Part shown: positions 1,585-26,210 of the stretch, in pieces
How the letters are laid out: each line of letters opens with the position of its first letter
Position numbering within the stretch: the stretch's first letter is position 1
NCBI RefSeq assembly: GCF_004010195.1
Contig: NC_057718.1
Coordinates: 81,478,864-81,505,073, forward strand
Length of the DNA: 26,210 bases
Direction: 5' to 3'
Source of the DNA: Chiloscyllium plagiosum
Lineage: Eukaryota
Translations under genes and position numbers: made by a program
Notes under the pieces: generated by a model
The model's database searches: none
What the model saw: only the letters and a program-made list of their open reading frames with translations
What the model was told of the DNA's origin: nothing

Positions 1585-1814
1585 AAGAGAAAGTGAGGAC
1601 TGCAGATGCTGGAGATCAGAATTGAAAGTGTGGTGCTGGAAAAGCACAGCAGGTCAGACAGCATCTGAGGATCAGGAGAATCAATGTTTCAGGCATAAGC
1701 CCTTCATCATCAATCAGGAAGCCCATTCCTGATGAAGGGCTTATGCCTGAAATGTCGATTCTCCTGTTTCTTGGATGCTGCCTGACCTGCTGTGCTTTTC
1801 CAGCACCACACTGT
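1585..1814. mobile_element. Fold-back PLE-terminus mini-element (family A) with two hammerhead motifs
   Basis: Arms ~1627-1709 and ~1730-1812 are reverse complements. Same sequence family as 24879-25929. Splits CR1 RT. No clear TSD. Confidence 0.85.
1725..1760 (+). ncRNA. Minimal type-I hammerhead motif (family A), CpG-decayed
   Basis: attc CTGATGA a gggc ttat gcct GAA atgt c gatt. The opposite-strand partner at 1679-1710 has its core disrupted by a small insertion. Confidence 0.65.
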
Positions 1815-3574
1815 GACTTGGCAGAAGACCAGAAAGTGGGGATAAAGGGGTCTTTTTCACAATGGCAGCTGGTGTCTAGTGCAATGCAGAGGTCCATAGT
1901 GGGACCACTACTGTTCACATTATATGTTAATGATGTAGGTAAAGAAACTGAGGGTATTAATCAATTTGCAGATGGTAGGTGGTGTGACAGATCGTGTTGT
2001 GCGAGCGGGTAAGCTGCAGAAGGACTTCCACAGGCTGGGAGAGTAAGCAAAGAAATGGCAGATGGAATGCAGTTTGGGAAGTTGAGGTTCTGCACATTTT
2101 TCGAAAGGTTGGAGGCATAGACTAGCTTCTAAATGGGGAAAGGCTTTGGAAATCTGAAGCACAAAGGGACTTAGGAATCCTAGTTCAGGGTTCTCATGAG
2201 GTTAACTTGAAGGTTCAGTTGGCAGTCAGGAAGGCAAATGCCATGTTGGCTTTAATTTCACAAGGGCTGGAATACAAAAGCAGGGATGTACTGATGACGC
2301 TGTTTCAGGCTCTGCACAGACCACATTTGGAATATTGTGAGCAGGGTTGGGCCCCATATCTCAGGACAATATGCTGGTTTTCGAGGGGATCAAGAGGATG
2401 TTTACAAGAATGATCCTAGGGATGAAGAGCTTGACATATGAGGAGTGGTTGAGGACTCTGGGTCGGTGGTCAATGGAGTTTAGAAGGGTGAGGGGGAATC
2501 TGATTGAAACTTACAGAATACTGAGAGGTCTGCATGGAGTGGATGTGGAGGAGATGTTTCCACTAGTCAAAGAGACAAGGACCCAAGGGCACAGCCTCAG
2601 AGTGAAGGGGTGACCCTTTAGAACTGAGATGAGGATTTTTTTCAGTCAGAGGATGGTGAATCTGTGGAGCTCATTGCTGCAGAGGGCTGTGGGTACTAAG
2701 TCATTGAGTGTCTTTAAGACTGAGATAGATAGGTCCTTGATTAGGAAGGTGATCCAGGAGAAGGCAGGAGAACAGGGTTGATAAACATATCAGCCATATT
2801 TGAATGGTAGAGCAGATTCAATGGGCCAAATGGCCTAATTCTGCTCCTCTATCTTTTAGTTTAATGGCCCACTTGTTGCCATTGTGATGCTGTTGTGGTT
2901 TACTGTATGTTAGCCCATGTAACATCGACCACATAGAATTGGCTTCTTATGACACGTCGAAATTGATTTACAACACTTAACTATTTACAAGGCAATGATA
3001 TCATAGACTTAAATGCACAGTCTGCATTGTGTGCCGACTGATTTTATTGTCTATCACTCAATTAGCTGACAGAGTGCACTGACTCCCTTATACAAAGGCA
3101 ATAACAGAAGGAGAGGCAGATATCTTTATATTGCCATGATATCTAACTTCCAGGAAGGTACAGACCTGTCCTGTAATTTATGCTATAATATTACAGAAAT
3201 ACTCACCTTATCACAATTTAAATTCAAAATCCTTCTCTCAAACTGGCAGAATGATGTTCCTGATACATAGGAAGCACATGGCCTGTCCAGATGATGTTTA
3301 AATATAGCACCTGGACCTTTGACCACCACCCAAGAACAGTGGAGTCAGGGACATTCTTCTCATCTCGTCATACAATTGGCCATCACCCTCAACTGTACCT
3401 AGCCAACTGGCTGTTTTGTGATTTGTGAGTGTTCAGCTGCCCACCTCTGACCAAATGTCCCACTCGCTTCTGATCCTGCTCTTCAGCTGCACACTGCTGT
3501 CATGAGATTCTGTCCTATGTTTCAAGATCAGTACAGCATCAAGTTTGTGAGCAGTCCAGTTCAGCTACAGATCG

Positions 3575-3960
3575 TGGTTAGGGAGAGGGCTGGTGCTGTC
3601 AGCAAGGTAACATAATTTATAATTAAATTAACAGCAATTCAGATTCAGACAATGTCTTCAGTCTTCCAAATGTTTAGGTGGGGATAATTGCTGCTCAAGA
3701 GCTGTATCTCAGACAAGCAAGACAACCTATCAGAAAGGGTCAAGAGACCTGATGATGTGGAATTGTGTGTCAGCAGCATAAGTTTGAAACTTGATTTGAT
3801 TTTGGATGATGTCACTAAAGATCAGAATGTAAATGAGAAATAACAGCTGAAGGATGAATCCTTGGAATACTCGAAATGTGAAACATCATGATCAGGAAGG
3901 GAAGCTACAACTTTCATACCCAGCTCGACAATGGAGGGAAGGCAATGGATGAGAACTGTG
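3575..3960 (-). mobile_element. Old L2-clade LINE RT fragment
   Basis: Minus strand gagtattccaaggattcatcc...ttatttctcatttac...gacatcatcc...tatgctgctgacacacaattc resembles GVPQGSILGPLLFLIY...DII...YADDTQL. Confidence 0.6.
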
Positions 3961-4039
3961 CTGTCAACCAAATTGTCACTGTCAAATGGGATGCCAGTTA
4001 TGAACATAAAAGACTGCAAGCTTCATATCAAATATTTAA

Positions 4040-4250
4040 ATGCAACTTGCATTGATCTAACACCTTGAAGGTAAGGTTTCGCAAGGTGATTCACAGGAGC
4101 AACATGAACAAACTAGCAAATCTCACAAGATAATTTAGCAGATAATCAAAGATTATTAAAGGAGGAAAGAGTAGCAGAGAGTTTTAGGAAGGGAATTAAG
4201 GTTACTGAAATGGAGCAGGGTAAAATCAGAATGATTTGAGAACAAATTTG
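4040..4250 (-). mobile_element. Probable L2-type 3' tail fragment
   Basis: caacttgcattgatctaacacctt... resembles the reverse of the L2/DeuSINE-type 3' tail also seen at ~21858. Very degenerate. Confidence 0.35.
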
Positions 4251-4264
4251 CATTAACAGGCCCC

Positions 4265-4360
4265 AGCCCTGGAGAAGGGTTACACCTGAAAAGTCGACTT
4301 TTGCGCCTCCTGATGCTGCCTGGTTCGCTGTGTTCTTCCAGCTTCTTGTCAATCTATCTC
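4265..4360 (+). mobile_element. PLE terminus fragment (family D) with degenerate hammerhead at 4265-4299
   Basis: agcc CTGGAGA a gggt tac acct GAA aagt c gact, followed by gatgctgcctgg...gctgtgttcttccagc as in the other families. Confidence 0.65.
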
Positions 4361-4921
4361 TTTTAAATAAGTCCTCTTATGGTTACAACCTTGGGAGAGA
4401 CTGGTGACCAGTTTAGTTTTGCTATATTGATTAATTAGAATAGTTCTATTTGCATTAGTAAAATAATCTAAAATTGTTAAAAACATTTTTGTTTAAATTT
4501 TAGTGTTCTGTAATAAATCAGTAAAATATTTGCTACAGTTTTACACAGCATTCGCCATTGTATTTTATGCAGTTGATTAATCTTCTAGATTCACACGGCT
4601 CATGTCAGTTTCCTAGGCCCTGGTTGGATTGTTTTCTGCCATTTGGGATCTTGACCTTGAACTGACTTCAAATGCCAACATTGAATCCTCAGAGCAGCTG
4701 TTCCTGAACTAGAGCTGTAATCCACCATTTACAATATTAAAGAAGTCAGTCACTGCATGGAGAAATGTTTATTATCAGTTTCCATCAGATGCACAATTGC
4801 ATGACTTGAAAGAGGAAAGATTTTTCAGTAATTGGACACTATGTGGTAATTTTGTAGTATGAAGGCACTCAGTTATATCTTGTTAAGACATTTTAATTTC
4901 TGAACTTTATCTTTAATTATT

Positions 4922-5560
4922 GGGCTGGATTTTCATTCTATGAGATGCTGAGTTCAGAATTGGGTGTGTAAGTACCTTGGCATCTTTCTGCTCGAGGCCT
5001 TTTTCACTGAGGGTGCCCTGGACGTGAAGGTAGCAGTATTCAGGCCAGTTGAGGTGATTTATCACCAGTCTCATGGAGTTTTCCAGATGGCAGTTGGATG
5101 GAGATGGTGACCTGCCATCAGGCTAGGAGCAAGCAGTGCCTCCTTTGGCTTCATCCCAGACCTGTAAGTGTACAGTAGCCACAGTGGTGGCTGCAGGCTA
5201 ACCTGGCTCCAGCATGGGTGTGTATCAGGAAGCAATAGACACAGGTTATCTTGCCTCTACTGTGGGTAGATGTTGGGGAGCTGCAGGAAATTCTGATAGC
5301 TACACTGTATTTTAGAACCTTCTAAATTCTTCAGAATTCACCCTTACCTGAGGCAACCTCTTGCTTTTATACCCACATTAGTGAAACTGTCATGGTCTCC
5401 GATTGACCCTCCTTGCTGCAGAAACCACCGTAATTGGATGGAGATGCTGGAGTTGGCTGCATAATTGGTGATGTCCTGTCCTCCAGGGTCCTGTCCCAGC
5501 CACTTCCAGGTTCCAGAATCAGAAATTGAGTGCATGTTTACAAAAATAAAAATTCAGTCT
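4922..5560. mobile_element. Possible non-autonomous DNA transposon (GGGCTG-type termini)
   Basis: gggctggatttt (4922) vs aaaattcagtct (5549-5560): 9/12 inverted match around a GC-richer interior. Confidence 0.3.
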
Positions 5561-6139
5561 CTCGAAAATTGGTCTTAGTCAACCTGTTGTAATCCTGACT
5601 CATACACATCATCAACATTTGATCTGCTATTTCAGAGGATGCACATACAGACAAAATTGTTACCGGGTGTATTAAAATAATTGAAAGGAAAGTGATGTGG
5701 AAAAGCTAAGTTCTAGGTTTTTGCAGTTATTGATCTATGTTCAAGTGACAGTGGATATATCTTTCCTTACTAGTCAAAATACCAATTACCATGGGACTAT
5801 GGGGATTGTTCTTTTTAGAGCTACTTAAGTGATTCCTATTTGCTTCAGCAAGGCTCACTCAGAAGCTTTGGTCGTGGGTTTGAAATGCCATCTCACATAG
5901 ATAATGGCTCCCATTACAAACTTAATGCTGAGACTGTCATTTCTAACATGACACTGATCCAACTTCCACATGATTTTTTGTGCTATATATTTTGTTATCA
6001 ATAATGTGTCTGCATAAGCATCGTGACAAAATGTCCCATTGAGTGGAAGAGTCAAAGGACAGCATTACATTTGCATCTCCCACCTAAGCTCCAGTTATTT
6101 TTATCTTGAGAAAATTATACTCCCAACAGCTTGCATTGT

Positions 6140-6520
6140 TATAACATCTTCAGTATAGATTGGGAAAGGGGGAGGCGTAACAAGACCTGGGAGACCTTGT
6201 ACACCAGTTGTTGAATGTAAGCATGCAGGTGTAGCAGGTGGTGAGGAAAGCAAATAGTATGTTAGCCTCTATAGTGAGAGGAGTCGAGTATAGAAGCAAG
6301 GATATCTTACTGCAATTGTGAAGGGCATTGCTGAGACCACACCTGGAGTATTGTGTTCAGTTTCACTCTCCTTATGTCAGGAGAGGGAGTGCAACAAACG
6401 TTTACTAGACTAATTCCTGGGATGACCGGACTGACATATGAAGAGAGAGACAAGTTCAAGCCTATATTCATTAGAATTTGGAAGAATGAGGGATATCTCA
6501 CAGAAGCCTATAAAACTCTT
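6140..6520 (+). mobile_element. CR1 LINE RT C-terminal fragment
   Basis: gagaccacacctggagtattgtgttcagttt (RPHLEYCVQF) and FTRLIPGMTGLTYEER. Confidence 0.8.
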
Positions 6521-6539
6521 AACTATTTCAAAGTTCTAT

Positions 6540-6790
6540 CTGCCCTACTATCTTTGACCTGCAATTCGTTTCAAGTTATCCAAAATTTAGCAGCCTATTC
6601 CTAAAACCTCAACAAGTTCCATTGTACTGATCGACATTGGTTCCTAGTCCTCCTAAATCCTCAAATTTTGAATTCATTATCTCTTGTTTAAATTTATTTA
6701 TGGCTTATTGTGGCCATAACTTCATCTATCTAGTATTCGTTTCCCAAATTTCTTCACATTTCAGACCATTGTTTAAATTCAACTCTTTGA
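6540..6790 (+). mobile_element. Possible L2 C-terminal fragment
   Basis: cattggttcctagt...aaattttgaattc resembles LHWLPV...FKIL. Highly degenerate. Confidence 0.3.
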
Positions 6791-6809
6791 CCAAGTGATT
6801 ACTCCCCTC

Positions 6810-7332
6810 TCATAAGATTCATAAAGATGCACTGCATGGAAAAGGACCCTTCAGTCCAATTTGACCATGTAGATTAAATATTCTAAATTAATCTAGTCCC
6901 ATTTGCCAGCATTTGGACCATATCCCTCTAAACCCTTCCTGTTCATATACCTATCCAGATAACTTTTAAATGTTGTAATTGTACCAGCCTCCTCCACCAC
7001 CTCTGACAGCTTATTCCATATACACTGTGTATGTGTGAAAATGTTGCCCCTCGAGTCCCTTTTAAATCTTCCCCCCCTCCCCCGACCTTAAACCTATGCC
7101 CCCTAGTTTTGGACTCCCCTCCCCTGGGGAAAAGACCGTGTCTATTTATCTTATCCATGCCCCTCCTGATTTTATAAACTTCTATAAGGTCATCCCTCAG
7201 CCTCTGACACTCCAGGGAAAATAACCCTAACCTATTCAGCCTCTCCCTATAGCTCAAACCATCCAATCCTGGCAACGTCCTTATAAATCTTTTCTGAGCC
7301 CCATCAAGTTTCACAAGGATGTTGCCAGGATT
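6810..7332 (-). mobile_element. 5'-truncated CR1 LINE 3' end with a short inverted 5' segment
   Basis: ORF 6943..7335 reads QKRFIRTLPGLDGLSYRERLNRLGLFSLECQRLRDDLIEVYKI. Same family as 1-697. Confidence 0.9.
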
Positions 7333-7489
7333 CAAAAGCGCTGAAGCAGCCCTAAATAAAGGAGCATTATCTTACCCTGTTCTTTCAACCTCTGTACTTT
7401 TTCATACATCAACCACATTATTGACCTTTAATTCCAGTCATGTGTTGGCAAGTCAGTAGAATGGTTTTCACTTTGATCTAATCATTAAA

Positions 7490-7780
7490 GCCAGTGTATT
7501 TCCAGAACTGACTACCTATCTTTTTCATTTACTTTTACTTCTGGAGTTCCTCCACAGATCTACTGTTAAACCTGTGCTGTTGATCTGCATACTTCCCTTT
7601 GAAAACATTGTTTGCTGACATGAGTTAGTTTCGACGTGTAAGTTGATATCTATTTCTCCTCTGACTCTTTTGGAATGTTTTTCCAATACCTGGTCTAGGA
7701 TGAACAGTCACTTCCTTTTGTGAACCATTGGGGAGGTGGAAATCATTATTTTTGGCCCCCATCACACACTTTGTACTAGA
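7490..7780 (+). mobile_element. Old L2-like RT fragment
   Basis: tctggagttcct...gatctactgtt...atacttccctttgaaaacattg...gttagtttcgacgtgtaagttgat resembles SGVPQGS...ILPLGNI...VSFHVYAD. Confidence 0.4.
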
Positions 7781-8944
7781 GCTGCAAGACCTTGTTGTAA
7801 TGCAAACAGAAAATATTAGAAAGTAGTCAGCAGGTCTGGAGACTCAACTGTAGAGAAGAAGAAACTGAAATCAGGAAAGGGAGATCTGAGGACATGGAAG
7901 GAAAACTGAGGCAATAAGGATGGGGAATCTGAGGACAAGTTGTAATTCACAGCAGGAAATTAGAATCCATTAATGGTAACTCACTGCAGGAAAACTGTAT
8001 ACCGGTAATATTCAGATTCTTTCCATAAACCCAGAATACATTTTATGTATCTCCTTTCAAGAAAAAACCCTCATTCCTTTGTGAAGGGTAATCTGCCTTT
8101 ATGGCTATGTGCCACAGCTCAACGGAGGCGTCCAGATTTTTAGAACTCCTTTTAAATCAGACCTGATTGTTTAATTCTGTTTTTATCTTCGATGTGCCTT
8201 TGTTCTGTATTCCTGTGTTGGTTGCAGGATAGGGGAAGTGGATAGTTTCTCTATCTACCCAATATCGTTAGCCCAATTAAGATTGCCAAATTATGTGACA
8301 ATCTGGTTCGAGACCAGTAACATTTTTTTTTAAATATGTGAAGCTTGAAATCCCCAGCATTTATTGGGAGAATAGAGCCACAGGATTCCACAGCTTTAAA
8401 TAAATAAACTAAATGTTACTGTGCAAGATTAGAAAATTAGATCAATCCACCTACTTTTCTCATGTTAAATGTGGATGCTAAAGAGATTATGAATTAGACA
8501 ACTGTGGATGAAAACACCACTAAGTGCATCAAATAGCAAATGTAGTCAAGGCAAATCCCATAGATCACAGAATGGCCCTTACCCCACCCCACCCCATTCT
8601 CCTTCCCAGGTGTTAATTACACTGTGGGTCACAAAATGTCGTTAAAACATTATGTACTTTACAAAGGATTCCAATTTTTAACTTTTGCAGATCTAGCTTC
8701 CAAATATCCTTGGAATTATTTTATTATGGACTTCCTCAATAACCGCTCACATCCTGGTACTTAAAGCTCTTCTTCTGAGACTGTGTTACACTGGATTTCT
8801 GAGGTTCTACTCCCGTACCCACTCATGGGGACACTGTCAGCTCTTTCACTACCATCTGGTTTAATTAAGTTGGCATACCCTCTGGGTTTCTCTGAGTTCC
8901 AATATTTCTTAGTTACTACATCTGCTTTGGGGTTTTCTTTAAAG

Positions 8945-9870: not shown

Positions 9871-10570
9871 TCATCCCCACTCTCAGCTGCAGAAGAGCCA
9901 GCAGTAGTTCCCAGGGCTGCTTCTGAGCCCTAGTATTGTCCAAGGCGGTGTCAGAAACCTTCTATCTCCACCTCAGCTTCCTTGAGTCATAACTGCGCTG
10001 AGCTATCCAACTGCTTCTGAAATGTCTTCCAAAGCCTCAACTACATAGCTAGTGACTTTCAACCACCTCCTTAACCACACTGCAAACAGCAACGCTTTTC
10101 CTGCTCCCATCCAATTGATTAACTCATCACCCCCATTTGTGGCCATCCGAGGTCCCACAACTGGATTTTCTCACCACTATTTTGAGGATAACTGAGGCTT
10201 GTCCAACATCTGTCACTGAGAAGAATCCAGAATGGTGGATGATGCATGTGTGGTCTGACCCATTTGTGCAGGCACTGGAACTCCCAGGGCATGCTGTTAA
10301 TTGAGGTTCTTGGCTTCCACCCTTAAAAAAGGTCAGTTAAGATTTCATTTGCCATTTTTCAACTGTACCCTTCCAGAATCAAGAACACTTTGGAAAATTT
10401 ACAACCAATACATTGATTATCTCTGCAACCATTACTTTTAAGCCTCTGGGATGTTGTCCATCAGACTCTTGAGACTCGTCAGTCTTTGTTCTAATAGTTT
10501 TCTTAGTTTTCTTTAACCTGGTTAAAAATCACACAACATCAGGTTATAGTCCAACAGGTATATGTGGAAA

Positions 10571-10605
10571 CACTAACTTTCAGAGCGTTGTTCCTTCATC
10601 AGCTG
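10571..10605 (-). ncRNA. Degenerate hammerhead motif (family B)
   Basis: Reverse complement: cag CTGATGA a ggaac aac gctct GAA agtt a gtg. Confidence 0.55.
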
Positions 10606-11202
10606 GTTGTGAAGAGTAAGATCATAAAATACAGAATTTATAGCCAAATGAGCACTCTGTCGTGGAGATGTGATGATACATTAGACAATTTTAGATCAAA
10701 TCTTTCATCTTTTAGAATAGGATGTGTTGGTTTCTGTTCTTTGATGTGTAAATCCCAGAACTTCTTTTAAATTACATTCTCAAGATAGCTAGCTTTTCGA
10801 ATAATAGTTGCCATCTCAGCTCAGACAATGCATTAAAGTGTGAGGTCTGTTTGTGTCGCAATGTTGAGTTAGACTGGTTCTACTTCTAAAGTGGGATTTA
10901 CAGCTTTTTACATGGATTCATGCAGTTTTTGAGCAAAATAATATGTAATTCTGCAAAACCAAATTCACCCTATAAACTTATATGTGTGCGCGTGTAGGAG
11001 AGACAGAATGAATGCATTCATGAGAGTGTGAGTGCATATCATAGTGTGTGCTTGGTTGTGTGTGTGTGAGAGAGAGAGAGATGGAGTATACGCCTTTGAA
11101 AGCGGCGCCATGGGTGAGAGTGCAGGGAGTGTATGTGTACATATGAGAGACAGCTTGTGTATGAGAGAGGGTGTGTGTGAGAGAGTGTATAGTGCAGTGG
11201 GG

Positions 11203-11507
11203 TCACCTGTAGTGTGACGTGAACCCAAAGTCCTGGTTGAGGTCATTCTCATGGGTACTGAACTTTGATATCAGCTTCTGCTCGGCCACTCTGCATTGTT
11301 GCTTGTCCCGAGGTCCACCTTGGAGGATGGTCACCCAAAGGTCTGAGGTCGAATGGCCTGGACAACTGAAGTGTTCCCTGACTGGGAGGGAACACTCTTG
11401 CCTGGTGATTGTTGTGTGGTGTCCATTCATCATTGTCTGAGTGTCTGCTTGGTCTTGCCAATGTACCATGCCTCAGGGCATCCTTGCCTGCAGCATATGA
11501 GATAGAC
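11203..11507 (-). pseudogene. PLE GIY-YIG endonuclease remnant
   Basis: Minus strand VYLICCRQGCPEAWYIG, then (frameshift) MNGHHTTI...LPVREHFS.PGH...AEQKLISKFSTHENDLNQDFGF. Confidence 0.85.
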
Positions 11508-11824
11508 GTGAGAATCCATGTAAAACACTGTAAATCCCACTTTAGAAATAGAACCGGTCGAATTCAACATTGGGACAGACAGACCTCACAACTTAATGCA
11601 TTGTCTGAGCTGAAATGTCACCTATTGTTAGAAAAGCTAGACCTATCTTGAGAATGTAATTTAAAAGAAGTTCTGGGATTTACATATCAAAGAACAGAAG
11701 CCAACACCTCATATTCTAAAAGATAAAAGACTTGATCTAAAATTGTCTAACGTATCATCACATCTCCATGACACTGTATTCATTTGGCTATAAATTCTGT
11801 ATGTTATGATCTTATACTCCACAA

Positions 11825-11859
11825 ACACTGATGAAGGAACAGCCCTCTGAAATCCAGTG
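11825..11859 (+). ncRNA. Degenerate hammerhead motif (family B)
   Basis: aca CTGATGA a ggaac agc cctct GAA atcc a gtg. Stems are eroded. Confidence 0.45.
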
Positions 11860-11983
11860 CTTCCAAATAAACCTGTTGGACTATAATCTGGTGATGTGTG
11901 ATTTTTAACTTTGTCCACCCCAGTCCAACACCGACATCTCCAAGTCATTCTTTAACCTGGTAATTGACATTGTTTTAAAGTTG

Positions 11984-12190
11984 AAAATGTGTTGCTGGAA
12001 AAGCGCAGCAGGTCAGGCAGCATCCAGGGAACAGGAGAATCGACGTTTCGGGCATAAGCCCTTCTTCAGGAAGAAGGGCTTATGCCCGAAACGTCGATTC
12101 TCCTGTTCCCTGGATGCTGCCTGGCTTGCGCTTTTCCAGCAACACATTTTCAGCTCTGATCTCCAGCATCTGCAGACCTCACTTTGTCCT
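11984..12190. mobile_element. Near-perfect palindromic PLE mini-element (family A)
   Basis: Arms ~11981-12067 and 12070-12152 around a 2-nt centre. Perfect 16-bp TSD cattgttttaaagttg at 11968-11983 and 12191-12206. Confidence 0.9.
12038..12073 (-). ncRNA. Minimal type-I hammerhead ribozyme, intact core (family A)
   Basis: Reverse complement: cttc CTGAAGA a gggc ttat gccc GAA acgt c gatt. Stem I is weak. The + strand mirror copy (12070-12100) lacks the CU of the core. Confidence 0.75.
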
Positions 12191-15050: not shown

Positions 15051-15233
15051 GGTAAAAACAATGACTGCAGATGCTGGAAACCAGATTCTGGATCAGTGGT
15101 GCTGGAAGAGCACAGCAATTCAGGCAGCATCCGACGAGCAGCAAATTTATTCCTGATGAAGGGCTTTTGCCCGAAACGTCGATTTTGCCACTCGTCGGAT
15201 GCTGCCTGAATTGCTGTGCTCTTCCAGCACCAC
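15051..15233. mobile_element. Fold-back PLE mini-element (family A variant) with a hammerhead in the loop
   Basis: Arms 15094-15145 and 15184-15235. TSD tggtcac(a/g)gtgttca at 15032-15046 and 15234-15248. Confidence 0.9.
15149..15184 (+). ncRNA. Minimal type-I hammerhead ribozyme, intact core (family A)
   Basis: attc CTGATGA a gggc tttt gccc GAA acgt c gatt. Predicted cleavage after C15180 (GUC). Confidence 0.8.
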
Positions 15234-15691
15234 TGGTCACGGTGTTCAGTCATGTCAAGGGAAGCACCCTTCAGGGGCTCACAGCACTACCTCCAGATAC
15301 CAGTCCAAGGACTTGGTGTGGACAGGGTCAGGACCCACTCCTTGTTGGAGTAAAAAACCAAACATTAGGCACCCCACCATCTGTCTTGGCTCTTTCTGCC
15401 CTATTTTTGGCCTTGTTCTCTTGTGCTGAGAGACAGGGAAAGGTTTGAATGAGATGAATTTGGGTATCACAGTACTACTGCTGATGCAGGTGGGGGAAAA
15501 GGTGATTGGGTGTCCCAGGTGAGTGTGCGGGAGATGCAGTAGTCTGTAGGGTTAGTAGTCTGGGCAAATTGTATGGTTGAGAAAAAAAGAACATATCACA
15601 TGCAATAATGAGATTGGCAGAGCATGACTCTTAGTGGGAGGTGGTTACAACAGTACAGAATGCATCAGAGGTAGCAGGTGGTGGCACTTAC

Positions 15692-15906
15692 CTGGCAGAA
15701 CACAGAAGGTCACTGACATCCTTACAGCTCTATTGGTCATTCCTCCAAAAGGTTGAGATTGCATTGACCTGGGTAGCATCCTTGGACCAGGCTGCCATGG
15801 TCTAGTGTCGTAGGCTCTGCTACTTGTCCTGAGGATGGTGGACATCCACCCTCTGAACTACCCTGTCTACCAGGATCTCATCTGCAAAGCAGGTGTCCAA
15901 TTTCCC
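15692..15906 (-). pseudogene. Degenerate Myb/SANT-like (trihelix) exon, probably from a PIF/Harbinger transposon
   Basis: Single frame GKLDTCFADEILVDRVVQRVDVHHPQDK*QSLRH*TMAAWSKDATQVNAISTFWRNDQ*SCKDVSDLLCSAR, followed by donor ag|gtaagt. TIR-like ggtaaaactcagccc at 16221-16235. Confidence 0.5.
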
Positions 15907-17096: not shown

Positions 17097-17279
17097 TCGA
17101 GTATGGTGCTGGAAACGCACAGCAGCTCAGGCAGCATCCGAGGAGCAGGAGATTCAACATTTCGGGCAAAAGCCCTTCATCAGGAATGACTCATTCTGGA
17201 TGCTGCTTGACCTGCTGTGCCTTTCCAGCACCACAGACTCGATGCTAATCTCCAGCATCTGCAGTCCTCACTTTCGCCT
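17097..17279. mobile_element. Fold-back PLE mini-element (family A)
   Basis: Inverted arms ~17097-17139 and ~17198-17242. TSD atg(t/c)tgttctttattg at 17081-17096 and 17280-17295, inside CR1. Confidence 0.9.
17152..17187 (-). ncRNA. Minimal hammerhead motif (family A), core intact, palindrome CpG-decayed
   Basis: Reverse complement: attc CTGATGA a gggc tttt gccc GAA atgt t gaat. Confidence 0.7.
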
Positions 17280-18169
17280 ATGCTGTTCTTTATTGCAAAG
17301 AGAATGGAATCTACAAGTTTTACTGCAGGTGTACAGGGCATTGATGAAACCAGATTTGGAGAAATGTACAGATTTAAAAAAATATATAATTGCTTTCAAA
17401 ACAGTTCAGAGAACGTTGACTTATTCATGGCATGAAGAGCTTATCTTTGAGGAAAAGTTGAACAGGTTAGGCCAATATCCATTGGAATTTAGAAGAATGA
17501 GAGGTGGTTTTATTGAAATATATAAGGTCTTGAGAGGAGTGGGTAGGGGGATACCTGGAGGATATTTCCTCTTGTGGGGAAATTAAGGTTATGGAATAAA
17601 ATTTAAATATAAGAGGCTCCTTGTAATGGTTGAGTTGAGGAGAGACTTTTCTTTCAGAGTGTCTTTAAGAATTCTGGGGATGGGCTGGCCACAGATATCC
17701 ACCATAAACCCACTGACTCTCACAGTTACCTTGACAATACGTCCTCATCATACATCCATTCTCCCAATTTCTCTGACTCTGTTGCATCTGTTCCGATGAT
17801 GCCAACCTCCACAAGGGGACCACCGAAATGTCCACCTTCTTCCTCAACCGAGGATTCCCCACCACTGTGGTTGACAGGGCTCTCAGCCAGATCTGACTCA
17901 TCTCCCGCACTTCAGCCCCCATCCACTGTCTTCCCTCCCAGCTTCAGGTTGCCTGCCTATTTAACACGCTGCCTTGTTCCCTGGTCAAAACCTCTGTCCA
18001 GTGAAGCCCAGTGTAAGCTGGAAGAACAACATTTCAATTTCCGCTTGGGAACCCTGCAACCTTCTGGACTCAATATCGAGTTCAATAATTTTAAGGCTTG
18101 AGCACCACCTCCTATGTTCTGACCCCAACCCCTCACACCCAGGCCTCACATAGTCTGCCACCACTTACA

Positions 18170-18304
18170 GGCAGAAGTAGGTACTGAGATCAGAGTCAAG
18201 ATTAGAGTGGAATTCCTGATGAAGGGCTTTTGCCTGAAACTTTGATTTTTCTGCTTCTCGGATGCTGCCTGACCTGCTGTGCTTTTCCAGCACCACTCTA
18301 ATCT
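18170..18304 (+). mobile_element. 135-bp PLE mini-element (family A) with hammerhead at 18212-18247
   Basis: attc CTGATGA a gggc tttt gcct GAA actt t gatt. Inverted repeat caagattagagtgg/ccactctaatcttg. TSD tgcca(c/t)cacttaca at 18156-18169 and 18305-18318. Confidence 0.85.
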
Positions 18305-18491
18305 TGCCATCACTTACAACCCATTGTCAATTGCGAGCAATCCCCATTTCCAGCAATTCGCTCTCCCAGGCTAACCTTTACACATTCCTTTGTTTGCCCA
18401 ACTGTTCTTTTGTCTGGGCTCAATCTCCATCTATGGATTACTTCTTACGCCTCCCACCCCATCCCTTCTCTAGCATACATATCAACCTTTT

Positions 18492-18878
18492 TTTCATATT
18501 TTCAATATTTACATATTTTTTATATTTCACCAGTTTCCTCATTTCCCTTCACCCACCTTACCTCAGTTCCAACCTTCCAGCTCAGCACCACCCCCATGAC
18601 CCATCCCATCTGTGCACCTTCCTTCCCATCTATACACTCCACTCTCCGACCTATCACCTTTAGCCCCACTTCCATCCACTATTGCACTCTCAGCTACCCC
18701 CCCAGCCCCACCCCCTCCCATTTATCTCTCCACCACTGAGGCTCCTAGCTTCATTCCTGATGATGGGCTTTTGCCCAAAACGTCGATTTTACTGCTCCTC
18801 AGATGCTGCCTGACCTGTGCTTTTCCAGCACCACTCTCTTGACGCTAAACTCCAACATCTGCAGTACTCACTTCCACC
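18492..18878 (+). mobile_element. 5'-truncated PLE 3' end (family A) with hammerhead at 18753-18788 (G12>A)
   Basis: C-rich UTR similar to 25620-25830, then attc CTGATGA t gggc tttt gccc AAA acgt c gatt. TSD tacatat(c/t)aacctttt at 18476-18491 and 18879-18894. Confidence 0.8.
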
Positions 18879-18905
18879 TACATATTAACCTTTTCCTAGC
18901 TACTA

Positions 18906-18947
18906 AGAGTTCTGAAGAAGGATCACTGGACCGAGAACATTAACTCT
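18906..18947 (+). ncRNA. Degenerate hammerhead motif (family C)
   Basis: agagtt CTGAAGA a ggatc act ggacc GAGA acat t aactct. 6-bp stem I agagtt/aactct. Confidence 0.6.
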
Positions 18948-19934
18948 GTTTTCTCTCCACAGATGCTGCCTGATCTGAGTTTTTCCAACAATTTCTGTCT
19001 TCATTCAACAACTTCTTTAAAAAAATTTTATGCCCACAGGATAAGACTATTGCTTCGGGTGTTTGAAATCAGAACTCCTGATTTCAGGGCTCCCAGATTT
19101 GGGAGTCACATCTGCCTTTGCTGCCTATTATCTAATGACAATCAGATCTGTTGGAAATGGGAGGACATCCTCTTGGTTCAGCTCTTGCTTGTCATTTTGG
19201 AAGGTCGTTATAGTTACCAGAATCTTCAAAAATTCAGGACCAAGTCTAGATCATGTTTTGCATCACACGGTCAAAAAGGAAGAATACCAAGAGCTTGTTG
19301 ACATGATAGCACCAAGCTTGAACTATCCTTACTGTCAAGAATCTGAAGGCTCAGGGCCACTGTATCTGTTGATTCAAGGTTTTAGAATGATTGCTTACCA
19401 GAGTCTGTGTTCAGAATATTTGCAATTTACAGCATATGAAATTGCTGACAGTTATGTGAATATCTAAACCAATACAGGACGTGTATTCACTGTCTTCCTG
19501 GAGAATAATTGTTTGATTGGAAACACAGCTCTCATTAATGACAAATGGTCTGTTCAGAGTTAATGTGTACCAATAAATGAGCCTAAAGATTTGACCTCAC
19601 GTCTCCTGCTAATCCTCATTCATGCCTCCAAATCTAATAATCCTTTAAAAGGAGCAGGGTCTAATGTTGGAAGCAATTTGCAGAAATAATTATATAAATG
19701 TAAAAACAAAAATTAAAGCAAAGTAAACATAGAGATTTAGCACGCTTCGTCATTTTGGAGCTTTCTGCCATGTAAAGGTGTAGGTGTCTTTGTTTAAGGT
19801 AAAGGAAAGCAGTAATTGATGCAGAGCTATCTGTATAATTTTCATGATTTGGAGATGCCGGTGTTGGACTGGGGTGTGCAAAGTTAAAAATCTTACAACA
19901 CCAGGTTATAGTCCAACAGGTTTAATTGGAAGCA

Positions 19935-19969
19935 CACTAGCTTTCGGAGCGACGCTCCTTCATCAGGTG
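19935..19969 (-). ncRNA. Minimal type-I hammerhead ribozyme, intact (family B)
   Basis: Reverse complement: cac CTGATGA a ggagc gtc gctcc GAA agct a gtg. Confidence 0.85.
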
Positions 19970-20524
19970 ATAGTGGAGAGCTCAATCCTAACACACAAAA
20001 TTTATAGCAAAAATTTACAGTGTGATGTAACTGAAATTAAACATTGAAAAATTGATTGTAAAGCCTTTCATCTGTTAGAATACAGTGATAGTTTCACTTC
20101 TTTCATGTGTAAATCACAAAACCTTTTTTTAAAAAAGTTGCATTCTCGGGTTAGCTGTTAACAATGGTGATAGCTGGACAATATGTTGAAGGTGTTAGCC
20201 CCCTGTGTTCTCTGTCTATGCCATGATGTTTAGATTGATTCTAATCTAAAAAGTGAGATAACGAAGTTTTACATGAATTCATGCGTACAAATTCACCCCA
20301 CAAAATATGTGTTCATGTGGGTCATTGTCTGTCTGGGTTGGGGGTTGTGAGTGTGAGAAAGTGTGTGTGTGTGTAGTGAGTGCAGAGTGTCTTAAGTCTG
20401 TGAGAGGGTGTGTGTCTGTAAGGGTGTGTGTGGGTGTCTGTGTGTATGTGTGTCCATGTGTATAGGAGTGTGTGTGTGTGTGTGTGTAGGAGTATCTGTG
20501 TGTGGGTGTATAGTGCAATGGTGG

Positions 20525-21109
20525 TCACCTGTAATGTGACATGAACCCAAGGTCCCGGTTGAGGCCCTCCCTATGGGTACCGAACTTAGCTATCAGCTTC
20601 TGCTCGGCCACTTTTCTCTGGTGCCTGTCCCGAAGTCTGCCTTGGAGGATGGTCACCCGAAGGTCCGAAGCTGAATGTCCTGGACCACTGAAGTGTTACC
20701 CAACTTGGAGGGAACCCTCCTGTCTGTTGATTGTTGTGCGGTGCCCATTCATCCGTTGTTGTAGCCTTTGCTTGGTTCCCCAATGTACCATGCCTCCGGG
20801 CATCCTTGCCTGCAACATATAAGATAGACAACGTTGGCTGAGTCACATGAGTACCTGCCATGTACAAGGTGGGAGGTGTCCCCACCTGTAATGGTGGTAT
20901 CTATGTCCACACTCTGACTCGTCTTTCAGCGTCTACCATGACAGGGTTGTATGGAGTTGTCCTCAGAGCCGGATAGCTTGCTACGAACAACGATCTGTTT
21001 GAGGTTTGGCGGTTGTTTAAAGGCAAGTAGTGGAGGTGTGGGGAAGGTCTTGGTGAGGTGCTCATCCTCATTGATAATGTGTTGCAAGTCACGAAGAACA
21101 TGGCATAAT
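20525..21109 (-). pseudogene. PLE linker and GIY-YIG endonuclease, disrupted
   Basis: LRDLQHII...FPTPPLLAFKQPPNLKQIVVRSKL...PCHGRR*...YSCDSANVVYLICCRQGCPEAWYIGE/(frameshift)...RMNGHR...AEQKLIAKFGTHREGLNRDLGF. Confidence 0.9.
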
Positions 21110-21489
21110 GGATTACATTGTACTTTGCTCAAAAACTGCATGCATTCATGTAGAACTCTGAGCTCAAAAACTGCATGAATTTATGTAAACTTCCGTTATC
21201 TCACTTTTTAGATTAGAATCAATCTAAACATCAGGTCATAGACAGAGAACACAGGGGGCTAACACCTTCAACATCTTGTCTAGCTATCACCATTGTTAAC
21301 AGCTAACCCGAGAATGCAACTCTTTTTTAAAAAAGTTTTGTGATTTACACATGAAAGAAGTGAAACTATCACTGTATTCTAACAGATAAAAGGCTTAACA
21401 GGCAATCAATTTTTCAATGTATAATTTCAGTTACATCACACTGTAAATTTTTGCTATAAGTTCTGTGTTAGGATTGAGCCCTCCACTAT

Positions 21490-21524
21490 CACCTGATGAA
21501 GGAGCGTCGCTCCGAAAGCTAGTG
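21490..21524 (+). ncRNA. Minimal type-I hammerhead ribozyme, intact (family B)
   Basis: cac CTGATGA a ggagc gtc gctcc GAA agct a gtg. Predicted cleavage after A21521 (CUA). Confidence 0.85.
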
Positions 21525-21857
21525 TGCTTCCAATTAAACCTATTGGACTATAACCTGGTGTTGTGTGATTTTTAACTTTGTATAATTTTCCTGTTCTTGT
21601 TTTATAAAGTATTTCCTTTCCTCTGTTTTCCATGCTAGTTTATTGAATCATGTTCAATAGGATCTAAGGACTTCTATAGAAAAACAAAATACTCCATTAA
21701 AGGTCTTCTTGGAAGTCAAGACTTCTGAAGAGAGAAATAGCGGTGATATTAACAAAGCCACAAGCTCGAGGTCAGACTATGGGCTACACTGTATGAAGAC
21801 ATCATCTCCTCTGTATCATGACCCATTATGTGTCTTCCAATAAAAACTGTAATAAAA

Positions 21858-22320
21858 GAATTGCATTAATATGTCAACTTTCGCAACTTTAAAACATCTC
21901 AAAGCACTTCACAAGCCAATGAAGTGTAATCTCCTAGGTAATATAGGAAATGTAGCAGCAAGCTCCTATAAACAGCAATGAGATAGTGACCAGATCCTTT
22001 ACGTATGTATATTTGTTTACGTTTCTGATTGGGGTGTAACTGCTCCGCAGGATATGAGGGGTGTTGGGACAGGCAGAATCCTGCACGTGTACCTGATTTA
22101 ACATTTGTTTTAGGCAAGATGACAATGCAGCTCTCCCCCTGACAATGGCAGTGCTGACAATGCAGCTCTCTCCCTGACAATGGCAGTGCTGACAATGCAG
22201 CTTTCGCCCCGTGCTACAGTCATGCATCAGCCTAGGTTTTGCACTCAAGTCAAAGGATTGGATTTGAACTGATGAACTTTTCTTTCAAAGACCAGATTGT
22301 TGCTGACCAACCACAACTGA
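21858..22320 (-). mobile_element. tRNA-headed Deu-domain SINE (SacSINE1-like)
   Basis: Minus-strand Pol III B box gttcaaatcc (22260-22269) and eroded A box near 22300-22320. Body (aaagcacttcacaagccaatgaagt, aaacagcaatgagatagtgaccagat, gacaatgcagc..ctccc) matches recalled shark DeuSINE sequence. Confidence 0.65.
22120..22210. repeat. 35-bp minisatellite, ~2.6 copies
   Basis: tgacaatgcagctctc(c/t)ccctgacaatggcagtgc starting at 22120, 22155 and 22190. Confidence 0.9.
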
Positions 22321-22619
22321 TTCAACTGCTCGTGGGTATGGCCGTAAAATGCCCAGACTCTACAATGTATGCGCTCAGAGCTTGCTGCTATAAAAAAAAA
22401 TGATTTGTAATGCTTTTTCCTGAGAGAGGAAATAAAAGTCACACAGCCATCAACTGTGAACTGTTTCTGTTCTGCTTGTGACTTCACAAGACCAAGAAGG
22501 CTGAGTTATGGTTTTTCCTTTTGTAAACCATTTTTTCAAAACAAAATTAAACAATATATAATGGTTTCAAATCATTCAAAAATGTAGCCAGATCACAGGT
22601 TGACTAGATCACGGCCCTG

Positions 22620-23230
22620 GAATTACAATGTGTCTCGCCAATGCAATTTGTGTGAAGAGATGCATTTTGGGAAGTACAGTGAGGTAAGGCAGCATAAATA
22701 AAATGGTACAGTTTCAGAGGGCGACCTTCAGTAAAGAGAGCTACAAGTTGAAATGCCCAAATCTTTGAAGGTTGCTGAACAAGTTGGTGAAGATGTTTAA
22801 AGATTAAATGGGATCTCCTTTACAAATAGAAACAAAGCATTTATACTAAATCTTTATAAATCTCTGGTTAGGCAACATCTAAAGTATTCTGTTCAATTTT
22901 GGATACCACATTTTAAGGAGGATATTAAAGTCATGTCGTGGGTTCAGAGGAATGCATCATTTACCATAATGATTAACAAGAATGAGGGGACAATGAAGTG
23001 AGAAGCCTAAAGAAGCTGGGTTAGTTCTCATTAGGGTAAGGTAACTAGAATTTTAGAAGAAATATTTGACATTAAGAAACATTTTGATTGAGTAAATAGG
23101 GATGAACCTATTTGGAGGAAGGTCAATGACCAGAGAGTACACATCTTGGGTTAAATGGTAAAGGAACCAAAGACAAGATGAGTATTTTTATAAAACACAA
23201 GTTTGTCAAGCTGAATGATGGTGTGCAATG
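22620..23230 (+). mobile_element. Old CR1 3' fragment
   Basis: ctttataaatctctggttaggcaacatctaaagtattctgttcaattttgg (LYKSLVRQHLKYSVQFW). Confidence 0.7.
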
Positions 23231-23279
23231 GATTTCCACAAAGGTCAGTGCAAGAACCACTGACCAACTCTGAGACTGT

Positions 23280-24298
23280 AATAGCGAAATGTTTCAGAAT
23301 TTGCCAATGATGCCAAAATTGGAGGAGTCATATGTAGTAAGGATGCTACTATTCAATTTCACCAGCAAAACGGGCAGACAAGTGGTAGATTGAGTTAGTA
23401 TAGAAAAGTGTGAAGTGATATATTTTGACAGGAGGAGTAGGGAGAGGCAATATAGACATAATAGTACAATGCTAAAGGGATGAAGGGGCTGAATTTCTTG
23501 TGCACAGATCTTTGAAGGTGCAAGAGCATGGTTAGCATAAAAGGAGTTTGGGCTTTATAAACAGATGTATTGAGTACAAAAGCAGGCAAATTGTAAATTT
23601 GAAATTTTAAAAACTCTGGTTAGGCTACATGAGTATTGTCTTTAGTTCTGATCTCCATCCTTCAGGCATGATGTGAAGACTCTCATGATGAGGGAATTTA
23701 ACAACAAGGTTATCTTGGAGTTAATTTCCATGGAGCAAAGGTGGTTTTAGGAGATGTGATGAAAATTGTACAAGGTTATAGTGCATCTAGATAAGGTAAT
23801 AAAATCAAAGCTATTCTCCTTACCTAATGTACAAGGGCTAATTGTCACCTATTTAAAGTCTTTAGCAAGAGATGGGCAGCAGAGCTTTCATACACTGCTA
23901 ATGACATCAGACTGTCTGCTATGAGAGAGAAGTAGAGGTAGGGATATTTGGAGGGATTTGTTTGGCCACTTATGGGAAATAAGCTTGTAGGGCTATGGGG
24001 ACAGAGCAGGGACTGGAGCTAAAAAAAACTAAAAGAACTGCGGATGCTGTAAATTTGAAATAAAAACAGAAGTTGCTGGAAAAGCTCAGCAGGTCTGGTA
24101 GCATCTGTGAAGACAAATGAAAGTTAACATTTTGGGTCCGATGACCCTCCTCAGATCAGTTCTGAGGAAGATCACTGAACCCAAAACATTAACTTTGATT
24201 TCTCTTCACAAGGGATTGGAACTGACTGAACTGCTTTGCAGAGAACGAGCATGAATTTGATTGGTTAAGTGGCCTCCTTCTGTGTCACAATGAGTCAT
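23280..24298 (+). mobile_element. Old CR1 RT C-terminus and tail, interrupted at 24021-24210
   Basis: tttgccaatgatgccaaaattggagga (FA.D.KIGG), aagtgtgaagtgatatatttt (KCEVIYF), ctctggttaggc. Tail tggcctccttctgtg. Confidence 0.75.
24021..24210. mobile_element. Fold-back PLE mini-element (family C) with two back-to-back degenerate hammerheads (24122-24156 -, 24158-24194 +)
   Basis: agtt CTGAGGA a g atcactgaaccc AAA acat t aact and its mirror copy. TSD aggga(c/t)tgga(g/a)ct at 24008-24020 and 24211-24223. Confidence 0.8.
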
Positions 24299-24409
24299 GG
24301 AGGTCTGCACCTTTGAAAAAGGCCCTTCAGCCCATTGAATCTGTGCCAGTCAAAGGCATACATCTAACTATTTTATGGCTATAGTTCTATGTTATGGTGA
24401 TCTGAACTC

Positions 24410-24610
24410 ATTTCCTGAAAGGATAGTGGCAACAGATTCAATAGGAATTTTCAAAAGGGAATTGCTTTTATAAATGAAGGGAGGAATTTTCAAAGCTATG
24501 GCAAAACAGCAGGTGAGGTAAGTGCAGCTATTCGAAAAGCTCTTTCAAAGGCTCAACACAGGCACAATCAATCAAATTGCCGCCACCTTTGCTGAATGAT
24601 TCTAGGATTC
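24410..24610 (+). mobile_element. CR1 3' tail fragment
   Basis: cctgaaaggatagtggcaacagattcaata...ttcaaaagggaattg...gctatgg...gattctaggattc. Confidence 0.55.
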
Positions 24611-24972
24611 AGCAGTGTATAACAATTAACGATCATTTAACTTCATCTCTTTCCTTTGCTAAGGGAATGGACTGCTATCATTTCCTTTCATTACAATGAT
24701 AACATTCATGTGTCACTGGTCCTACATTTCATAACTGAGGATGTTCAATAATTCATAACATCCCATATCTTTTCCAGCAGGTGGTCTTTAACTCACAGTA
24801 TTCAAACTACAGGGTGAAGATCTAAAATGTTACAGGCTACTTTTCTACATCTTGGCAAAAAAGGGTTATATTTTAACTAGGAGAAAGTGAGGTCTGCAGA
24901 TGCTGGAGATCAAAGTTGAAACTTTATTGCTGGAACAGCACAGCAGGTCAGGCAGCATCCAGGGAACAGGAG

Positions 24973-25008
24973 ATTCGACGTTTCGGGCACAGGCCCTTCT
25001 TCAGGAAT
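24973..25008 (-). ncRNA. Minimal type-I hammerhead ribozyme, intact (family A)
   Basis: Reverse complement: attc CTGAAGA a gggc ctgt gccc GAA acgt c gaat. Confidence 0.87.
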
Positions 25009-25202
25009 GAGCAGAGAGTGTTCAGCAGGAGAAGATAAAAGGTAGGGAGGAGGGACTTGGAGGAGGGGAGTTGGAAATGTGATAGGTGGAAAGAGGTCAA
25101 GGTGAGGGTGATAGGTCGGAGTAGGACGGAGGCGGAGAGGTCAAGAAGAAGACAGCAGGTCAGGAAGGCGGTGCCGGGCGGGAAGGATCCGGCTGAGACA
25201 AG

Positions 25203-25697
25203 GTGGGCACCTTCCCTTGCAACCGCAGGAGGTGCAACACTTGCGCCCACACCTCCCCCCTCACTTCCCTCCAAGGCCCCAAAGGAAACTTCCATATCCG
25301 CCACAGATTCACCTGCACCTCCACCCACATCATCTACTGCATCCGCTGCAGCCGGTGTGACCTCCTCTATATTGGGGAGACAGGCCGCCTACTTGCGGAG
25401 CGATTCAGAGAGCACCTCTGGGCCACCCGGACGAACCAACCCAACCAACATGTAGCACAGCATTTCAACTCCCCCTCCCACTCCACCGAGGATATGCAGG
25501 TCATTGGACTCATCCACCGCCAAACCACAACAACCCGACGGTCGGAGGAGGAGCGTCTTATCTTCCGACTGGGAACCCTCCAACCACAGGGGATGAACTT
25601 GGACTTCACCAGTTTCTTCATCCCCCCTCCCCCCACCTGGCTCAGCCGAATCCCTCCAGCCCGGCACCACCTTCCTGACCTGCAGTCTTCTTCTTGA
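25203..25697 (+). CDS. PLE Cys-rich linker and GIY-YIG endonuclease domain (open frame, 5'-truncated, no RT, no ATG start)
   Basis: CNRRRCNTC, HIIYCIRCSRCDLLYIGETGRLLAERFREH, HFNSPSH, EERLIFRLGTLQPQGMN. Confidence 0.85.
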   Translation: MGTFPCNRRRCNTCAHTSPLTSLQGPKGNFHIRHRFTCTSTHIIYCIRCSRCDLLYIGETGRLLAERFREHLWATRTNQPNQHVAQHFNSPSHSTEDMQVIGLIHRQTTTTRRSEEERLIFRLGTLQPQGMNLDFTSFFIPPPPTWLSRIPPARHHLPDLQSSS

Positions 25698-25829
25698 CCT
25701 CTCCGCCTCCACCCTACTCCGACCTATCACCCTCACCTTGACCTCTTTCCACCTATCACATTTCCAACGCCCCTCCTCCAACTCCCTCCTCCCTACCTTT
25801 TATCTTCTCCTGCTGAACACTCTCTGCTC

Positions 25830-25865
25830 ATTCCTGAAGAAGGGCATGTGCCCGAAACGTCGAAT
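25830..25865 (+). ncRNA. Minimal type-I hammerhead ribozyme, intact (family A)
   Basis: attc CTGAAGA a gggc atgt gccc GAA acgt c gaat. Predicted cleavage after C25861 (GUC). Confidence 0.88.
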
Positions 25866-25944
25866 CTTCTGTTCCCTAGATGCTGCCTGACCTGCTGTGC
25901 AGTTCCAGCAATAAAGTTTCAACTTTGATATGCAGCAAGACCTA

Positions 25945-26210
25945 ACTTGGAGATGTTGGTAGTGGACTGTGGTGGACAAAGATAAAAATCACACAACACC
26001 AGGTTATAGTCCAACAGGTTTATTTGGAAACACTAGCTTTCAAGGCACTGCTTCTTCATTAGGTGGTTGTGGAGAATAAGGTCATAAAACAGCATTTATA
26101 TCCAAATGAGTACAGTGTCATGGAGATGTGATGATACATTAAACAATTTAAGATAAATTTAGGATGGGATGTGTTGGTTTCTGTTCTTTGGTATGTAAAT
26201 CCCAGAACTT
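25945..26210 (-). mobile_element. Family B PLE pseudo-LTR running off the window, with mutated hammerhead at 26031-26065
   Basis: Homologous to 10523-10770. Reverse complement cac CTAATGA a gaagc agt gcctt GAA agct a gtg (G5>A). Confidence 0.85.

Follow-up and report, generated by a model that had tools for sequence, protein, structure and literature searches.

Minimal hammerhead ribozymes have been described in the pseudo-long terminal repeats (pLTRs) of metazoan Penelope-like elements (PLEs; PMC4209133). Left without a partner or a protein, such relatives show weak cleavage or none (PMC4209133, PMC11167929), one of nine dimers was found to cleave (bioRxiv 10.64898/2026.07.22.740005), and uncleaved RNA is the main substrate of the PLE protein of the anole (PMC11167929). 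In a 26,210-nt stretch of the Chiloscyllium plagiosum genome (hereafter the window, with positions counted from its first letter) an original prediction had placed nineteen minimal hammerhead motifs, and we found the motif or its remains at all 19 sites. The pairing of PLEs with hammerheads is already known, and apart from it only the scale stands out here. The explanation that best accounts for the observations as a whole, and which we consider probable, is that these copies are ribozyme-headed stubs made from capped, mostly uncleaved PLE RNA.

The motifs resemble those of PMC4209133 in their type I fold, in the extra nucleotide after A9 and the G10.1-C11.1 pair (our relaxed descriptor demanded both, so these speak for presence and not for frequency), in the palindromic minimal helix III, the short helix I and the U3-A8 variant, and in occurring mostly as solo or opposite-strand copies. 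They differ in a far higher copy number (at least 69,784 exact matches) and in a helix II of 4-5 bp in families A and B, and the passages of PMC4209133 consulted here make no mention of capped 5' ends or a poly(A) signal. Eleven sites are of family A type (site/position of C3, with minus-strand motifs marked: 1679/1710(-), 1725/1729, 4265/4269, 12038/12069(-), the truncated plus-strand 12070/12068, 15149/15153, 17152/17183(-), 18212/18216, 18753/18757, 24973/25004(-) and 25830/25834), five belong to family B (10571/10602(-), 11825/11828, 19935/19966(-), 21490/21493 and 26031/26062(-)) and three to family C (18906/18912, 24122/24154(-) and 24158/24162). The minus-strand coordinates first given for these sites mark the low end of the motif, near the cut site; the sites themselves were borne out, and the predicted cuts after C25861 and A21521 are correctly placed. 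Elsewhere in the genome, at L090:9762(-), L133:5381 and other sites but not in the window, there is a fourth family of hammerheads (D), whose helix II is long and whose extra nucleotide is U.

Ten of the 19 cores are intact, seven carry a single change and two carry two changes; helix I comprises 2-4 bp, and helix III is palindromic at nine sites. The six copies that had been called canonical (12038, 15149, 19935, 21490, 24973 and 25830) are exactly those whose core is intact, whose helix II has four pairs and whose helix III is a perfect palindrome. However, they are minimal by the published definition, as a 6-bp helix I and loop 1-loop 2 contacts, the canonical type I features, are absent from the window motifs; at 12038, helix I is only 2 bp, its 5' strand having been lost in an inversion joint, and at 15149 it contains a U.U mismatch. 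An Rfam scan of the window returned no hammerhead family at E<=10 and only sub-threshold microRNA matches, to palindromes. A strict family-independent descriptor matched five times in the window against a mean of 0.055 (maximum 2) in 200 dinucleotide shuffles, and back-to-front patterns matched nowhere in the genome, on which grounds chance matching was rejected. Judged by their sequence, the window motifs are minimal type I hammerheads, not canonical ones in the published sense.

As the original prediction held, and with an architecture as in PMC4209133, the motifs are assigned as pLTR hammerheads to at least three endonuclease-bearing PLE families. Upstream of the motif at 25830 lies the 3' end of a PLE open reading frame (ORF; 25197..25697, plus strand), which starts with a Cys-rich linker, CX4CX2C, and encodes a GIY-YIG endonuclease (PF01541 at 25197-25694, E 4.4e-5, above the cut-off, in one of six scanned frames), and broken equivalents of domain and linker lie upstream of the motifs at 19935 and 10571. 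Since GIY-YIG and a Cys-rich linker stand directly upstream of the motifs, the families probably belong to the Neptune clade; a Cys-rich linker between reverse transcriptase (RT) and endonuclease (EN) is also found in Nematis (PMC8557442). Evidence of the RT in the window consists of decayed RT-end fragments only, read by eye; no full-length element was seen, nor did one emerge when the copies were searched for sequence shared beyond the tail. An inverted 5'-truncated partner, a one-sided tail and a target-site duplication (TSD) are all present, and the tail-anchored 3' ends of the copies fall at two points. PLEs described in PMC3846280 and PMC8557442 are alike in their 5' truncation, inverted adjacent copy, one-sided 30-40-bp tail and TSDs, as well as in TATA and Inr-like motifs in the pLTR; however, short solo pLTRs were ascribed there to recombination or deletion, whereas here most share a single defined end point and carry an extra G there.

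Because TSDs of 12-16 bp surround both arms of most inverted pairs, the 19 motifs amount to 13 insertion units, six of them two-motif head-to-head inverted pairs, and 19 independent events were rejected. Among 47 neighbours within 1.5 kb, 37 were head-to-head, three tail-to-tail and seven on the same strand. The non-LTR retrozymes (bioRxiv 10.64898/2026.07.22.740005) are likewise PLE-derived type I hammerhead repeats in vertebrates, including one cartilaginous fish, but they form head-to-tail tandem arrays, whereas the window copies are solo or head-to-head; a retrozyme array was rejected on the orientation of the pairs and the few same-strand neighbours. Since a transcript through an inverted pair would fold into a long hairpin and hide the motif (the palindrome at 12000-12136 folds as one hairpin, -127.9 kcal/mol), the paired motifs, on opposite strands, are predicted to be long hairpins and not cis-dimers.

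The position at which copies begin was determined in 99 family A copies picked by their distal tail only; eight N-adjacent copies and matches scoring <25 or starting past model position 3 were excluded. Seventeen of these end at -5..-3 from C3, ten of them exactly at -4, and, per base, a copy ends with a probability of 0.116 at -5..-3, against 0 at -15..-34, where none of the 27 copies at risk ends, and 0.004 at the cut site, where one does; of the ends at +30..+38, some three to four belong to family C copies that were aligned with A references. Family B was tested by pattern, since some of its ends at -1..-4 are subfamilies without a reference. Genome-wide, 3,846 copies of A1, one loop variant, start with a foreign flank at +1, the A of ATTC, and 788 family B copies start at their own +1, located at -8 from C3. 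A TATAAA stands 30 or 32 nt ahead of +1 in 24 of 25 family B copies, and TTATCT at the same distances in 41 of 44 family A copies; the +1 A of both families has an initiator-like context. Joints at the cut site number 339 genome-wide against 217 at a control site under the same filter, 39 of the 100 listed being two recurring microhomology joints, and a small cleavage-derived fraction of copies may exist. Among the 100 listed cut-site joints, 17 show a precise deletion between two GA dinucleotides, removing helices II and III, which suggests that the RT skipped over a folded hairpin.

The base preceding +1 was counted by hand in the first 100 rows in coordinate order. In A1 it was G in 66, A in 20 and T in 14 among the 100 matches listed, where the template has C and G would be expected in about 26% (p about 2e-16); one base further up, G was found in 19 among the 100 listed. 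Family B gave G in 88 among the 100 matches listed, with C again in the template. At a non-start joint (+33) taken as negative control, the counts were G 20 and A 80 among the 100 listed. Full-length L1 and SVA insertions likewise carry one extra G at the transcription start, an untemplated base attributed to copying of the cap (PMC3287187); L1/SVA and LTR elements differ from PLEs in enzyme class and in priming, and strand transfer is not shown for PLEs. The short copies would accordingly be, as part of the explanation that we hold probable, run-off cDNAs reaching a capped, uncleaved RNA end. In our literature searches we found no published account of the cap-like G, the promoter spacing or the poly(A) site, on which the supplement of PMC11167929, which shows copy ends, could bear.

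At the RNA level, run X20 consists of raw poly(A) single-cell reads with the same species label and represents the family, not necessarily this locus. In it, loose poly(T) ends fall at 26004 in 314 reads and at 26007 in 194 (508 in all), opposite in strand to family B, and the family B poly(A) sites therefore map within an older minus-strand copy at 25947..26210 (C3 26062, broken core). These sites lie 12-15 nt beyond a poly(A) hexamer (AATAAA at 26024-26019), ahead of a GU-rich run, and 27-30 nt beyond the cut site. First-mate depth was 732 and 690 on either side of the cut site, and X20 showed no depth drop at either cut site, but cut 3' products would escape detection on account of their shortness. 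Loose ends that run on into younger ribozyme sequence number 557. The reads thus show a used poly(A) signal and uncut family B RNA.

As to scale, the three family patterns have 56,816, 12,389 and 579 exact matches in the 3.556-Gb assembly, against 0 for the same patterns reversed; about 4,000 motifs were reported in the coelacanth and about 9,000 in Xenopus (PMC4209133). A sample of eighty 10-kb stretches, taken at round positions along contigs C1-C38 (771,760 called bases), yielded 35 strict matches, 63 perfect-core relaxed matches and 211 tail copies. The window is 3-4 times denser than this sample (strict descriptor, 5 per 26.2 kb against 35 per 771.8 kb; relaxed descriptor, 11 against 90). 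The conjecture of a large reservoir, made on condition that the window's density be typical, is therefore right in that the genome holds very many motifs, but the density is not typical. Scaled from the sample, the genome would hold roughly 150,000-300,000 intact-looking motifs amid nearly one million remnants, a reservoir made up of motif relics and only conjecturally of active ribozymes.

The original prediction would be refuted by a core no better conserved than its flanks across families; the core is better conserved at the level of families but not of copies. In helix I, 29 of 36 pairs are kept across 12 types, against a shuffled mean of 20.1, and 2 of 10,000 shuffles reach 29, which is not a strict probability because the types are related (the counts were not taken from the MAFFT alignment, which misplaced family B by one column). 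Of 184 motifs with an intact core, 151 have ACGT or AGCT as helix III, a feature that the search did not demand, the core is constant across families, and a U3-A8 swap occurs in three sampled copies from two PLE families (L130:3129, L114:1590(-) and L047:999(-)). Among copies, all 11 core positions are kept in 32/49 of family A and 9/18 of family B, G12 is lost in 9/49 and 5/18, respectively, and about a third to a half of the sampled copies have a broken core; in family B, core mismatch is not lower than in the tail (14/180 and 19/396). Individual copies decay about neutrally and there is no consistent sign of selection on the dispersed copies, which, together with conservation at the family level, points to selection on master elements.

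We propose that the pLTR is laid out like a retroviral LTR, with a TATA or TATA-like box, a start that would be that of RNA polymerase II, a hammerhead directly behind the cap, the cut site at about +32 in family A and +37 in family B, in family B then a poly(A) signal, and finally two RT start points in the tail. The PLE protein would nick the DNA and begin copying at the tail; on a template begun in the same pLTR the RNA 5' end would be reached after some 95-135 nt, the cap would often be copied as an extra G, the short cDNA would be sealed in, and a second, inverted arm would often be made in the same event. Such run-off at a nearby cap would leave hundreds of thousands of ribozyme-headed stubs in the genome. 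Templates would be mostly uncleaved, ends inside the ribozyme would be trimmed products, and long copies would derive from read-through RNA, strand transfer or circles. The ribozyme would be selected only in master elements and, by analogy with its relatives, is likely a slow cutter needing a dimer partner or the PLE protein, while the dispersed copies would be mostly passive relics. The Poseidon element PAc of the anole (PMC11167929) is alike in its two internal RT start sites giving an optional tail, in its uncleaved template and in the absence of RNA ends at the cut site. However, the PAc ORF starts inside the ribozyme, where family B has a short upstream ORF, the likely start of its main ORF being at the end of the tail; the passages of PMC11167929 consulted here give no map of where genomic copies have their 5' ends. 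At 19844-19850 (minus strand) an ATG closes the family B tail and is followed by a graded continuation, which places this likely ORF start at the distal RT start site.

Several observations weigh against this proposal. About 40 of the 99 family A copies have their end within the ribozyme (-2..+26), so that trimming or stalling must be assumed in addition, and another 27 extend upstream of +1, which needs another template. A third test of the preceding base, in TTTT-loop A copies, was weak (G 28, A 20, C 52). X20 shows no pile-up of molecule starts or ends, a poly(A) single-cell library being ill-suited to this, and a second run, X21, gave no matching reads, so that +1 is not supported by RNA; host transcripts that terminate in a solo copy may, moreover, be the source of the poly(A) reads of X20. 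In family A, the core is less mutated than the tail (17/490 against 74/1078, p 0.007), a comparison confounded by subfamily columns in the tail.

A more far-reaching version, which we can only put forward as tentative, is that PLEs replicate in an LTR-like manner, the pLTR corresponding to U3-R-U5 and the hammerhead filling an R of 64-67 nt (start to poly(A) site in family B). Since the polyadenylated mRNA ends before the RT start sites of the 3' repeat, the RT would start in the 5' repeat, reach the cap and then switch to the 3' R in order to copy the body. In LTR elements, minus-strand strong-stop DNA is a short cDNA running from an internal start to the cap. If this version were true, the stubs with a cap G would represent strong-stop DNA that had become integrated, and the role of the ribozyme would be to gate the transfer or remove the cap, rather than to make circles.

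The copies that run upstream of +1 would also be accounted for by the circle model (Cervera and de la Pena), in which tandem hammerheads are cut as dimers, unit-length RNA is closed by ligation and the RT copies mainly circles, so that copies crossing the cut site would carry a re-joined site; the palindromic helix III and the family-level covariation would then reflect selection for a dimer-competent ribozyme. However, circular RNA lacks a 5' end, whereas the majority of copies stop at +1 or just inside it and carry an extra G, and no clear pile-up is seen at the cut site, which makes this model unlikely. Similarly, it seems improbable that the extra G arose by non-templated C addition at an uncapped RNA end or by microhomology with the partner arm, and the pile-up by RT stalling or foldback at the ribozyme. 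Retroviral RTs do add C at run-off, many ends lie within the ribozyme structure, and partner-arm sequence accounts for part of the family B excess, many of the listed rows having partner-arm flanks that end in G. Nevertheless, among the matches listed, 26 of the 37 rows with a foreign flank still have G, and the control joint shows no enrichment of it; the cliff, furthermore, lies beyond the far (5') side of the structure, 30-32 nt below the TATA box, in two families with different offsets.

Lastly, an active reservoir of dispersed ribozymes cutting host transcripts could invoke the number of intact-looking motifs, the presence of family sequences in poly(A) RNA and the chance for abundant copies to meet in trans, but it is very improbable given the weak folding of the monomers (-7.9 and -9.9 kcal/mol, z about -1), the sequestering of the motif by inverted partners, the decay of the cores with loss of G12, the unchanged depth at either cut site and the low in vitro activity of related motifs (PMC4209133, PMC11167929, bioRxiv 10.64898/2026.07.22.740005). 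For a cofolded pair of monomers, the lowest-energy form is a helix-II duplex and not a hammerhead dimer, a result that supports neither side.

Two young insertions in the window illustrate the proposed layout. In the young family B pair at 19844..21580 (12-bp TSD), both motifs, C3 19966(-) and 21493(+), are intact, and the minus arm contains broken RT-end, linker and GIY-YIG coding sequence. On its plus strand, a TATA box variant (21455..21460) lies 30 nt 5' of the predicted transcription start, A21485, 8 nt ahead of C3; the intact minimal hammerhead (21490..21524, predicted cut after A21521) follows, and then an ATTAAA poly(A) signal (21533..21538) with a GU/U-rich element, recognized by sequence and homologous to the site used in the reads. 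The young family A (A3) pair at 24878..25930, with intact C3 25004(-) and 25834(+), includes on the plus strand a TTATCT element conserved in family A (25800..25805), 30 nt 5' of the predicted +1 at A25830, which opens an intact minimal hammerhead (25830..25865, predicted cut after C25861).

This last pair is possibly a copy from a collapsed assembly. Its A3-to-B junction (25921-25953) occurs at 42 places in the genome, and five copies share long stretches at 98-100%, including inversion joints expected to be unique (24878-26210; L010, L141-L145). Three of the five end at or beside N gaps, the window's own end among them, and the window is followed by at least 2.5 kb of N. The likely explanation of the 24878-26210 copies is, in our judgement, a collapsed contig that was placed at many gaps, and a possible one is a young composite subfamily or element; the junction was rejected as proof of an active source locus, an assembly artefact being more likely.

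Three other family A insertions have an arm that begins near or at the start. At 15052..15236 (with TSD) the plus arm begins near the predicted transcription start (C3 15153) and the minus arm is without a ribozyme; at 17100..17282 (12-bp TSD) the minus arm begins at the predicted start (C3 17183) and the plus arm is tail only; and at 18178..18305 (with TSD) the plus arm of a short insertion begins at +1 (C3 18216), with an inverted tail piece upstream. The family A palindrome at 11980..12190 (16-bp TSD) is centred in the ribozyme core (C3 12069(-) and the truncated 12068(+)), and as a whole (11977-12190) lies some 20 bp away from the TSD that bounds a family B insertion, an older pair at 10521..11945 (14-bp TSD; C3 10602(-) and 11828(+)) whose minus arm carries a decayed ORF of the GIY-YIG region. 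A family A head-to-head pair at 1584..1812 (both strands; C3 1710(-) and 1729(+)), with no clear TSD, sits in a host fragment that we take to be a CR1-like long interspersed element (LINE). PLEs cluster beside or inside one another and inside such CR1-like LINEs.

Older remains on the plus strand include a solo copy of an A-related family with an 11-nt helix II/loop and one core change (4263..4350), a 5'-truncated family A copy made of ORF end and pLTR (18526..18882; C3 18757, G12 lost) and a short family C copy with a broken core (18905..19003; C3 18912). An old family C pair (24030..24210; C3 24154(-) and 24162(+)) has lost G12 in both motifs and has a probable TSD, recognized by eye. At 17680-18120 there is a decayed PLE ORF remnant without a ribozyme of its own, in which an RT-end motif is joined to the EN C-terminus by an internal deletion. 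The stretches 1-708, 1038-2855, 6183-6492, 6805-7316 and 17402-17579 are decayed high-copy LINE fragments, presumably CR1-like, the first of which contains a 63-bp tandem duplication (456-581). At 22123-22206, three copies of a short unit of about 32 bp stand in tandem, as judged by eye. The repeat content of the window would fit a cartilaginous fish.

The record left in the ends of these copies bears on two questions, namely how PLE insertions are made and what the PLE hammerhead is for. It offers a base-exact, predicted transcription start for two families and indicates that most of the templates that became integrated were uncut. The extra G at +1 is, in addition, a simple test that may be applied to any PLE-rich genome.

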